Shown here: positions 863-64,000 of the stretch, one piece after another
Numbering within the stretch: the first letter of the stretch is position 1
Layout: every line of letters begins with the position of its first letter
Assembly (NCBI GenBank): GCA_036785375.1
Contig: JAWMAR010001256.1
Coordinates: 62,001-126,000, forward strand
Source of the DNA: Leucoraja ocellata
Lineage: Eukaryota
Reading direction: 5' to 3'
Length of the DNA stretch: 64,000 bases
Made by a program: the position numbers and the translations under genes
Notes under the pieces: model-generated
The model's database searches: none
What the model saw: the letters and a program-made list of their open reading frames with translations, nothing else
Told to the model about the DNA's origin: nothing

Positions 863-3678
863 GGCCCGCTGAGTTCCTCCAGCACGTTGTTTTCTGTTTT
901 AGGCTGGTCAGTGTCACCACTTTGCAACCTCTAAAGGAATGGGAAACATTTTGAGAGGATGGTTTGGCGAGATTGCTTGCATGTTCCATTTGCATCACTT
1001 GAAGTGCGAGCGGCCAAAATCACCAGCTGGGCCTTGTCTCCGGCCTGCCTGTTGTAACAATGGGATTGTCCAACTCTGCCATGTTTACACTCGGCGATTC
1101 TGACATCTTAATTCACTGATCTTTAAACCTACGCTGTTGCAATCATCCTCGCCACTGAGTAATGACTCGCAGTTAAAGCAGCCGTGACAGGCAACCCAAA
1201 CAAACAAGTATCAACCTATCCAGACATAATCAAACCGGATACCTTCAAGCAGTCACGGGCTCCAGCTTTCCACTTCATCTGTTGTCTGTTGATCATAAGG
1301 TCACAAGTTCATAAGTGATAGAAGCAGAATCATGCCATTCGGCCCATCACGTCTACTCCACCATTCAATCATGGTTGATCTGTCTCTCCTAATCCCATTC
1401 TCCTGCCTTCTCCCCATAACCCCTGACACCCGCACTAATCAACAATCTATCTATCGCTGCCTCAAAAATATCCACTAACTTGGCCTCTGCAGCCTTCTGT
1501 GGCAACGAATTCCACAGATTCACCACCGTCTGACTAAAGAAATGCTTCCTCTTGGCTACTTGTCCTTGCTCAGACAACCCCTCCCAATCACTTTGTGCTG
1601 AATCAGACAAGATGGTGGATCTGGGCACAAAGGGTGTCTTAGTCATTGTGTAAAGACATCAACAATCCCATCTGGTGCCCAAGGGAAGCATGGCTTAGAT
1701 CCAGAATAGACCGGCTCATAGAACAGGGCAGTACTCCAAAGACTGCCGTCTGAAGAAGGGTCTCGTCCCGAAATGTCACCCATTCCTCTATGCAGAGATG
1801 CTGCCTGACCCGCTGACTTACTCCAGCATTTTGTGTCTGCCTTCAGCACTCCAGGCATGCAGGTTTGGAGGGTAACTGGCTTGGTATAATTGGAAACTGT
1901 CTCTAGTGTGTGTAGGATAGTGTTAATGTGCAGGGATTGCTGGTCAGCACGGACTCTGTGGGTCGAAGGGCCTGTTTCCGCGCTGAATCTTAAAACTAAA
2001 CTAAACTAAACTAAATTCAACTAAACTAAATTGAACCATAAGTACATCACAGGAACAGGCACTTCAGTCCATAATGTCTGTGCCGAACATGATGGCAAGT
2101 TAAGGTATAGGACAGATGCTGTACATGTGGCACCTAGAGTAACGATTCCTCTACAATGCCCCATCAGAAACTGCTCGGACAGAGTGCATGTTTTCCCCAA
2201 GTGTAGCTCTCTCTGCTGCATTCTGACATTGGGGCTTTAATTCACATTCCAGTAGATCTTTCTCGGAGCTGTCGTGATGGAAAGATTCTGAACAAGCTGG
2301 ACATCATCTAGCTTATTATATCTTGACCTACCACAGGCCAATTTACTTTAATCCAAACCACTTCTTCTTGGAGCAGAGACCCCACCAGTTCCCGTCAGCT
2401 TCCCGCCGGGTCCCTCTCCATTCTCAGCGGCCCCCCAGCCGGGCCCCCCTTTGTACTTGTCGACCCCCCTCTGGGTTCCCTCTCTGTTCTCAGCACCCTC
2501 CCTATTCTCTCCAACCAAACCTTCCAGGGCTGATACAGTGCAGGGTCAGATAGAGATAAAAGTTCCTTTTAGGCTCTCCCATTAAAACTCCCTCAATGGG
2601 CATGTGATGGGTTAAGAGAGTGGAGCTTTTATTCATTTACGGGACGTGCAGCATTTATACTCCATCTGTAAACGACCACATTAGTGGTTCTGACTCACGT
2701 TGCCAGTCCTGGCCAGGAATGGATGTCAAATCTAATTATCTTGTTTGGAGGACATTAATGCACATGATGGGGTTTTTTACAACAATCCTGTGGTTTCACA
2801 ATGACTGTTTCTGATACTAGCTTTTAATTTAAAATTATTTGGTTTCCTCAGAAGGCGGCAGTGGTAGAGTTGCTGCCTCACAGCGGCAGAGACCCAGGTT
2901 CAATCCTGACCACAGGTGTTGTCTGTACGTTCTCCCTGTGACCTGCATGGGTTTTCTGCGGGATCTCCAGGTTCCTCCCACACTCCAAAGACGTACAGGT
3001 TTGTAGGTTGATTGACTTCTGTCAAATTGTAAATTGTCTCGAGTGTGTAGGATAGTGCTAGGGAACGGCCCAGACCCGATGGACCGACGGCCTTTTTCCG
3101 CTCTATACTGTATCTCCAAACTAAACTAAACAAGGTACTATATTGAGACTCAAATTTATGATAGAGTGATACAGTGTGGAAACAGGCCCTTCGGCCCTAC
3201 ATTGATCCTGGATCAATGTGCTGAATTTTGTTTCCAATAGGTCATGATCGGCTTCCAATGCTGACTGACAATAGGATAGATGCTGTATATATGACATCCA
3301 GAGTAACGAGTCCTCTACAATGTCCCATCAGGCACTCCTTGGACAGTGGTTAGGTTTTTCCCAACTATAGCTCCCTCTGCTGCATTCTGGCAAAAGAGGC
3401 TTAATTCTAGTCCTAGTCGGGTGGATCTTTCTAGGAGCTGTCATGATGAACAAGCTGGTGATCAACCAGCTGGTTATTCCTTGACCAAACACTGCCCAAT
3501 TTACTTAAATCCCAAGATAAGGGCCCACAAGGTTTTCCTGGAGTTCCCTTCCACTTATTCATTCACCTGATAGAACTTGTTCTCACATTGAACGAGTAGA
3601 AACAAATAATTGCAGTAGACACAAAATGCTGGGGTAACTCAGCGGGACAGGCAGCATCTCTGGAGAGAAGGAATGGGC

Positions 3679-3706
3679 GACGTTTCGGGTCGAGACCCTT
3701 CTTCAG
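3679..3706 (-). ncRNA. Minimal type-I hammerhead ribozyme motif (consensus-perfect copy)
   Basis: Reverse complement is CTGAAGAAGGGTCTCGACCCGAAACGTC. Confidence 0.6.
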
Positions 3707-63109: not shown

Positions 63110-64000
63110 GTAAGTAACTTTACATTGGTGCCATCGAGTCTGCTCTGCCTTTCAATCATGAATGAGGTGGGATGATTTCGCAGCGGTAGAGTTGCTGCCT
63201 TACAGCCCCAGAGACCCGGGTTCGACCCTGTCTACGGGTTGCTTGTCTATATGCAGCTTTACATGCTCCCCCCCCCGTAAACTGCATGTGTTTTCTCGGG
63301 GATCTCCGGTTTCCTCCCACACTCCAAAGACGTAGTTTTGTAGGTTAATTGGCTTGGTATAATTGTAAATTGTATCTAGTGTGTGTATGATAGTGTTAGT
63401 GTTAGGAACCGCTGGCCGGTGCGGACTCTGTGGGCCAAAGGGCACGTTTCTGCGCTGTATCTTTACACTAAACTAAACTAAGATAAAAAGATGGTATTCT
63501 AGAACCATTGCAACTGTGACTGTAACTTGTAGACTCTCTGTTCACATCTACCTGTTTAGGGCGGGAATATTGGGAATGCAGAATTATAATTTATATTGAA
63601 TGTACATTTTCTATCAGGTGAGGATCACAGGGAATAAATGGCCTCAGTACATGGATTGAAAAGGCTGTTTAGTGAATGCAACAAAGACCGCTATAACCAA
63701 TGGGTGTAGGAACGTATTGCATTGCCGCCTAGTGGATCTGCTTGGAACTGCATGCTTTTTCGTGGTTCTCTTCAAAAAACAGGATGCTTCCAATGTAGAA
63801 ACAAGGAGTGTGTAGGAAGGAACTGCAGATGCTGGTTTAAACCGAAGATAGACACAAAATGCTGGAGTAACTGAGTGGGACAGGCAGCATCTCTGGAGCG
63901 AAGGAATGGGTGACGTTTTGGGTCGAAACCTTTCAACAAAGATCTGATTTACAGACGAGGACACGGAGTGCTGGAGCAACTCAGCGGGTCAAGCAGCATC

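Follow-up and report, generated by a model that had tools for sequence, protein, structure and literature searches.

Truncated 3' ends of a Penelope-like element carry minimal, mostly decayed hammerhead motifs at high density in a Leucoraja ocellata contig

Minimal hammerhead ribozymes (min-HHRs) have been described in the pseudo-long terminal repeats (pLTRs) of metazoan Penelope-like elements (PLEs), including Xena, Poseidon, and Neptune of fish (Cervera and De la Peña 2014, PMC4209133), and PLE minimal hammerheads were also studied by Lünse et al., as cited in a review (PMC6765202). Thousands of min-HHRs are reported for each of the coelacanth and Xenopus genomes (PMC4209133), and for the axolotl as many as 120,000 are given in a section title of PMC7229834, so high copy number is no novelty by itself. 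PLE insertions are described as 5' truncated, with an adjacent inverted copy and an optional tail of 30–40 bp (PMC8557442). In the anole PLE Poseidon PAc, reverse transcription is reported to start from both tail ends with uncut RNA as the main template; its hammerhead needs the protein of the element for cleavage, and hammerhead mutants insert unimpaired in vitro (Frangieh et al. 2024, PMC11167929). Animal non-LTR retrozymes are a further class of hammerhead-bearing, non-coding, high-copy, PLE-related repeats, described as tandem units with complete hammerheads that are expressed as circles (PMC7229834; preprint 10.64898/2026.07.22.740005). Here we describe a dispersed repeat family with hammerhead motifs in a stretch of 64,000 nt from Leucoraja ocellata (assembly GCA_036785375.1, contig JAWMAR010001256.1, positions 62,001 to 126,000, forward strand), which we call the window.

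On all sequence features that we examined, the window family is a PLE min-HHR family: the kind is known, and this is a new family instance at high density. We consider it very likely that the repeats are 5'-truncated PLE 3' ends with a minimal type I hammerhead that is likely functional in the source elements, and that the inserted copies are likely decaying neutrally and mostly dead. For cutting, the source hammerhead is predicted to need either a dimeric state or the help of protein, and the repeats themselves are ordinary genomic debris. We found no paper devoted to this family, which Lünse et al. and supplement 1 of PMC4209133 may list; it was not found in the main text of PMC4209133 or in two of its three supplementary files.

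We scanned the window with the pattern CTGANGA-N-GGGT-NNNN-RCCC-GAAACGTC, allowing up to two mismatches and using 100 dinucleotide shuffles as a control. Exact matches occurred at 3679–3706 (−), 11279–11306 (+), and 35536–35563 (−), and 16 matches had at most two mismatches, compared with none in the 100 shuffles. An nhmmer profile made from nine copies of the window recovered 63 fragments at E < 0.01, spread over 363–64000 on both strands and covering 5,056 nt (7.9% of the window). A first-pass annotation, made from the same DNA, had claimed both that these three cores sit in a common repeat and that its copy number is very high, and both claims held. At E < 1e-4 the profile gave 58 fragments, 33 in minus and 25 in plus orientation (p = 0.36, no strand bias), with a local density of ~0.9 fragment per kb. 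The family comprises at least three sequence subfamilies, told apart by the sequence behind the cleavage site, with 30, 7, and 3 motif matches (some counted twice). The hammerhead scan that the annotation had proposed was negative with Rfam models, which gave 15 matches in the window at E ≤ 10 and no hammerhead among them. Four miRNA-like Rfam matches (23929–24018, 35507–35608, 38174–38258, and 39366–39448) coincide with inverted pairs of the PLE repeat and were rejected. No tRNA genes were found in the window, and viral contigs scanned with the hammerhead pattern gave no matches.

The majority letters of 35 aligned copies contain a full hammerhead core (C3-U4-G5-A6-A7-G8-A9, an extra A, G12-A13-A14, and C17), a stem II of GGGU/ACCC with a 4-nt loop, and a helix III formed by the palindrome ACGU, which is also the majority form in contigs from public sequencing runs and is often lost by CpG mutation. 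The extra base after A9 is A in 31 of 34 copies, and the pair 10.1–11.1 is formed in 19 of 21, as G-C in 14. The proposed identity as a minimal type I hammerhead agrees with this combination of core, extra base, G10.1-C11.1, and palindrome. Stem II had also been recognized, but its drawing with 5 bp and a 2-nt loop fits the sequence less well than 4 bp and a 4-nt loop. Stem I is limited to 2 bp followed by A·C, with the third pair formed in one of 21 copies, which supports the doubt that the annotation had raised about stem I. The annotation's remark that the hammerhead of the viroid CChMVd tolerates an extra A after CUGANGA agrees with a citation in PMC4209133 on a base that stays unpaired at stem II's 5' end.

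The majority letters fit every sequence trait that PMC4209133 gives for min-HHRs. Features shared with the PLE min-HHRs described there are the layout of type I, the conserved core, one additional base between positions 9 and 10.1, G10.1-C11.1, a palindromic 15.2–16.2 without loop 3, the position in pLTRs, and mostly single, truncated, dispersed copies. The 2-bp helix I resembles that of Drosophila virilis Penelope. Schistosoma min-HHR families are described there with a stem II of 7–8 bp and a stem I of 4–5 bp, compared with 4 and 2 bp here.

For comparison, we scanned a metagenome collection with a pattern in which the core and two pairs of stem II were the only fixed parts and stem I was free, which yielded 123 stretches from 15 of the 64 collection parts (121 loci, 100 distinct motifs). 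By blastn, the window family was absent from the 121 loci, which therefore serve as unrelated controls only. Among the 100 motifs, 2.1–1.1 was paired in 90, with at least five pair types, and 2.2–1.2 in 83. Stem I reached at least 3 bp in 62 of 100 motifs versus 13.5 in shuffles (maximum 25), a contrast that counts related motifs separately and is not a probability. An endonuclease match was present in 20 of the 121 loci, in 17 of them no more than 600 nt upstream of the motif. Because the stem I pairs covary and an endonuclease lies upstream, we interpret the motif class as a real, structurally constrained PLE feature. The window family stands at the low end of stem I length, both in the published range and among these controls. 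Compensatory changes among the families of one genome are described as a supporting trait of min-HHRs (PMC4209133). In 21 window copies of one closely related family, covariation did not rise above shuffles by any measure, so the lack of stem II covariation that the first-pass annotation had named as a refuting sign was borne out within the family. A double change was seen only at 15434 (G-C to A-U), where a CpG is affected, and it may have arisen by chance. Inverted pairs also occur among the metagenome PLE-type hammerheads (L018, L070, L001, L105, and L032), and one metagenome family, by eye, seems to extend stem I beyond an internal loop. For window copies, folds gave no support for a longer stem I past a bulge.

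Six stretches in the window code for the C-terminal part of a GIY-YIG endonuclease (5330–5404, 10556–10600, 17251–17474, 23354–23419, 40742–40876, and 61335–61481), and five of the six have a hammerhead motif 85–253 nt downstream on the same strand, in line with what had been claimed. The order of parts in the window is endonuclease tail, pLTR, hammerhead motif, and optional tail. An exhaustive protein search with the endonuclease remnant found 52 proteins, the closest 56%–76% identical over ~48 amino acids; a word-based search gave no matches, and the remnant peptide searched alone had no Pfam match. Pfam GIY-YIG matched three of seven scanned homologous proteins, although weakly (E 0.001–0.008, below the Pfam cut-off). 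Two homologous proteins (P0002 and P0024), and homologs only, carry a Cx3-4CxxC linker before the endonuclease. Craig et al. 2021 (PMC8557442) describe a CX2-5CxxC linker between reverse transcriptase (RT) and endonuclease (EN) in two clades, Neptune and Nematis. The element is probably a PLE of the Neptune clade, an assignment that relies on a linker outside the window sequence. Poseidon PAc belongs to another clade, and its open reading frame (ORF) begins in stem II (PMC11167929). Four database proteins (P0001, P0002, P0005, and P0008) have the PLE endonuclease tail fused to unrelated domains (GPCR, DUF4518, and LINE RT); these are probably gene-prediction artefacts and possibly exonised PLE pieces.

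Endonuclease-bearing members of the family are clearly common. Contigs of four public runs (three coded organisms), placed on 61300–61900 at 80% likeness, covered the endonuclease remnant and the hammerhead motif heavily, where depth is not equal to copy number, and endonuclease-coding family contigs were abundant in all four runs. Loose contig ends behind 61862 were AT-rich and had no common sequence (agreement 0.35–0.43, four runs); those before 61334 agreed at 0.61–0.67 in three runs and, by eye, the endonuclease goes on there. Among the contig ends listed, which do not reflect RNA ends, there was no pile-up.

Insertion anatomy also pointed to a PLE. The 5' ends of fragments, read by eye together with nhmmer fragment ends (10 rows were unanchored to the motif), form a graded series from within the endonuclease to beyond the cleavage site. 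Most copies span that site, and at most one or two of 58 fragments begin at it. This by-eye reading showed no accumulation of 5' ends there that could be taken as a trace of past cleavage. Neighboring fragments no more than 40 nt apart were head-to-head in 11 cases, tandem in four, and tail-to-tail in none (p = 0.001). An extra tail of ~35 nt was present in 18 of the 49 copies that extend to the 3' end, and inverted tails adjoin the 5' side of two copies. In ~20 fragments, the junctions left by truncation or inversion fall together at the core's 5' boundary (e.g., 20061, 23867–23977, 27102, 35512, and 38185). A small inverted repeat, TCAG-T-CTGA, lies just upstream of the core at this junction cluster and could favor strand switching. 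Like canonical EN+ PLEs (PMC8557442; Poseidon PAc, PMC11167929), the family thus combines a C-terminal GIY-YIG with 5' truncation, inverted 5' copies, an optional tail of 30–40 bp, AT-rich flanks behind the tail, and an uncut hammerhead in inserted copies; unlike them, it is present in the window as remnants only, with RT and linker absent. The PLE origin proposed earlier was borne out by the endonuclease remnants, truncation, inverted pairs, and optional tail. We also observed a minisatellite at 9037–9209 (16-nt unit, 10.8 copies, 91% match) whose unit is part of the PLE 3' body, making it a PLE-derived tandem repeat without hammerhead.

Nearly all copies in the window appear mutated and are likely unable to cut. 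All four parts of the motif (the core, a stem II with G10.1-C11.1, the palindrome, and stem I) survive in only two of the 58 fragments, 3679 and 11279. We analyzed 28 of 35 core-spanning alignments, after dropping seven whose 5' part was a junction or misaligned. The four core CpG positions (C11.1, G12, C15.2, and G16.2) were mutated in 33 of 112 cells (29%), 23 of these being CpG-type transitions, and only four of the 28 copies kept both core CpGs. Non-CpG core positions were mutated in 16 of 306 cells (5.2%) versus 8.1%–9.7% in the body (Fisher p = 0.09 without and p = 0.01 with subfamily-diagnostic columns in the body). In the window, no complete motif is followed in tandem by a second one: the nearest same-strand near-match lies 499 nt from 11279, without C3 and G12, and 11.8 kb from 3679. 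The suggestion of potential self-cleavage sites across the locus is therefore weak, with two complete copies and no complete tandem partner.

These patterns suggest how the insertions may have arisen. Judging from published work on PLEs, including the anole element, reverse transcription would start at either tail end on mostly uncut RNA, and it would halt early or switch strand, leaving stubs of 60–500 nt that nearly always include the hammerhead. The short distance of ~100 nt between the hammerhead and the point where reverse transcription starts may explain why so many copies contain it. The anole model of an uncut template fits the window, in which the majority of copies run across the cleavage site and, by eye, no more than one or two start there. 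After insertion, methylation-type CpG mutation would strike the catalytic G12 and the ACGT palindrome first. The source hammerhead would most likely serve in trimming tandem RNA precursors, either as a dimer or assisted by protein.

Several observations weigh against this account. A stem I of 2 bp, shorter than in most controls, calls activity into question even in the source. With ~20 of 58 fragments starting within ~12 nt of the core (by eye), short elements might have spread by themselves. The base-matched test of non-CpG core positions, with 16 changes observed versus 23.2 expected (p = 0.08), gives a faint hint of selection; with 31 rows the p value is 0.25, so excess core conservation, whose lack the first-pass annotation had likewise named as a refuting sign, was not significant. 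The Neptune-type linker comes from homologous proteins only. Finally, a crude motif scan of the window found neither a PLE RT nor a full-length element, and the source elements are thus not seen.

The most serious alternative, which we regard as rather unlikely although it deserves attention, is that the hammerhead is a vestige, inactive even in source elements and carried along only by the adjoining start of reverse transcription. The short stem I followed by A·C would fit such a vestige, as would the normal in vitro insertion of anole hammerhead mutants (PMC11167929). Predicted folds, which are nearest-neighbor predictions without tertiary contacts, point in the same direction. In several copies the core and the 5' strand of stem II pair with sequence behind the cleavage site, and the probability of the G10.1-C11.1 pair was 0–0.10 in six copies folded with their flanks, whereas 70 controls, chosen beforehand for stems of 3 bp, had a median of 0.71. 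Double-hammerhead folds of 3679 and 11279 reached −6.1 and −6.7 kcal/mol, compared with a median of about −11 in controls; however, these energies are in the weakest quarter of the controls but within their range. The majority letters of three subfamilies all retain the full core, and changes at 11.4 and 1.1 preserve U·G pairs, neither of which favors a vestige. Additionally, G12 and C15.2 are the common letters in family contigs of other organisms (47%–71% and 61%–84% of depth, respectively), and D. virilis Penelope, with its 2-bp helix I, cleaves weakly when helix III is extended (PMC4209133). A vestigial hammerhead would be a matter of the source elements alone and does not conflict with the PLE assignment.

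A non-autonomous, retrozyme-like element, consisting of the hammerhead, a body of ~120 nt, and the tail, could instead have been copied in trans by PLE proteins, perhaps via self-cleaved circles. Short copies outnumber endonuclease-bearing ones by about 10:1, many 5' ends gather just 5' of the core, and animal retrozymes are described as derived from pLTRs and present in the one chondrichthyan sampled (preprint 10.64898/2026.07.22.740005). We nevertheless find this improbable. Retrozymes comprise two or more adjoining tandem units whose hammerheads are complete, an arrangement that the window does not contain, and none of its 27 TRF rows is a tandem array of the hammerhead unit. The window copies differ from retrozymes in being scattered, in having an inverted instead of a tandem arrangement, in their link to endonuclease remnants, and in being broken for the most part. 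Graded 5' ends, with so few starts at the cleavage site, also argue against this origin, and short and endonuclease-bearing copies have sequence and tail in common. Neither the window fragments nor the four runs gave evidence for a separately amplified non-autonomous family. Because the 5' ends are graded and endonuclease-bearing members are abundant, truncation suffices as an explanation, and truncated PLE copies fit better than the largely non-autonomous family assumed at first.

A modeled variant seems to us a long shot: the hammerhead may be switchable, with a decoy helix to the sequence right behind the cleavage site blocking the ribozyme and its 2-bp stem I until the protein of the element either refolds it or brings two copies into pairing. 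Decoy-type pairing was predicted in folds of copies from two subfamilies. If such a switch were real, host transcripts could contain, over the whole genome, latent sites by the tens of thousands at which the protein would trigger cleavage; for scale, ~47 exact cores per Mb is an extrapolation from three in 64 kb of a single window. Least credible of all is that the host has kept some copies as cis-acting cleavage sites in transcripts of an ICAM/VCAM-like locus, since the high density, immunoglobulin (Ig) exons on the plus strand, and slightly lower non-CpG core divergence are set against the position of 3679 and 11279 outside mapped exon spans, the antisense orientation of the 35536 core to the Ig exons, the lack of strand bias, three exact cores in 28–35 core-spanning copies as fits CpG decay, and the reported inactivity of minimal motifs as monomers (PMC4209133).

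Individual copies illustrate the decay of these PLE 3' ends. The complete minimal hammerhead at 3679–3706 (−) lies in a pLTR fragment (3614–3728) and has the core, a 4-bp stem II, the ACGT palindrome, and a 2-bp stem I including a U·G; the one at 11279–11306 (+), also with a 2-bp stem I, lies in a more diverged fragment (11269–11373). The third exact match, 35536–35563 (−), has an intact core, as the annotation had stated, but is less complete than implied there. This copy forms the short minus arm of a head-to-head inverted insertion (35512–35670, both strands), with a body deletion right behind GTC-ACC, and its stem I has only 1 bp because its 5' flank is the inversion junction. The plus arm begins just 5' of the cleavage site and runs into the tail. 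A near-complete motif at 15434–15461 (−), in a fragment (15366–15481) followed by the tail, has an intact core with G10.1-C11.1 changed to A-T. The variant at 20067–20094 (+), in the plus arm of an inverted pair (19991–20159), has CTGATGA as reported earlier, but its helix III palindrome is broken (ACAT) and the motif ends GAAACATC. Similarly, the second-subfamily copy at 53673–53700 (+) has the reported GGT/ACC stem I but a G·A mismatch in stem II; its 5' part falls in an assembly gap of 447 N (53223–53669) that it directly abuts.

Longer 3' ends retain endonuclease sequence. On the plus strand, 40742–41188 comprises the GIY-YIG C-terminal remnant (40742–40876), the pLTR, and a decayed hammerhead (41093–41120) without tail, and 61335–61862, located between Ig exons, comprises a GIY-YIG remnant (61335–61481), a decayed hammerhead from 61734, and a tail at ~61829–61862. 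Two shorter examples on the same strand are 5330–5610, with a GIY-YIG remnant (5330–5404), a decayed second-subfamily hammerhead (5489–5516), and a tail, and 10556–10874, with a remnant (10556–10600), pLTR, and decayed hammerhead (10780–10807). On the minus strand, 23150–23419 combines a remnant (23354–23419) with a hammerhead whose U4 is mutated (23216–23243). The longest GIY-YIG remnant, 17251–17474 (+), is frameshifted and has no hammerhead directly downstream. A complex insertion at 23839–24260 (both strands) includes a head-to-head pair, 23867–23969 (−) and 23977–24081 (+), both with tail, and an inverted tail adjoining a further copy at 24159–24260 (+).

As it stands, the window carries little weight beyond adding one more very dense family that links minimal hammerheads with PLEs. 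It would matter more if the element's protein triggers cleavage at many genomic copies. The family is a handy natural case for the role of PLE ribozymes, given its minimal stem I and copies that preserve the state of the template, which was mostly uncut.

The surrounding locus contains Ig-domain exons on the plus strand at ~29059–29307, 32278–32620, 56523–56879, 58342–58690, 60260–60598, and ~62995–63114. These probably belong to two tandem ICAM/VCAM-like genes, with Pfam matches to ICAM_N and ICAM D2, and the exon at 32 kb shares 51% identity with the one at 58 kb. An ORF of 390 codons at 48355–49527 (−) contains RVT_1 and ALKBH8_N domains and is likely a fragment of a young non-LTR retrotransposon unrelated to the PLE family. 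Further LINE-like ORFs are located at 26015–26719 (−), 12921–13439 (−), and 424–780 (+).

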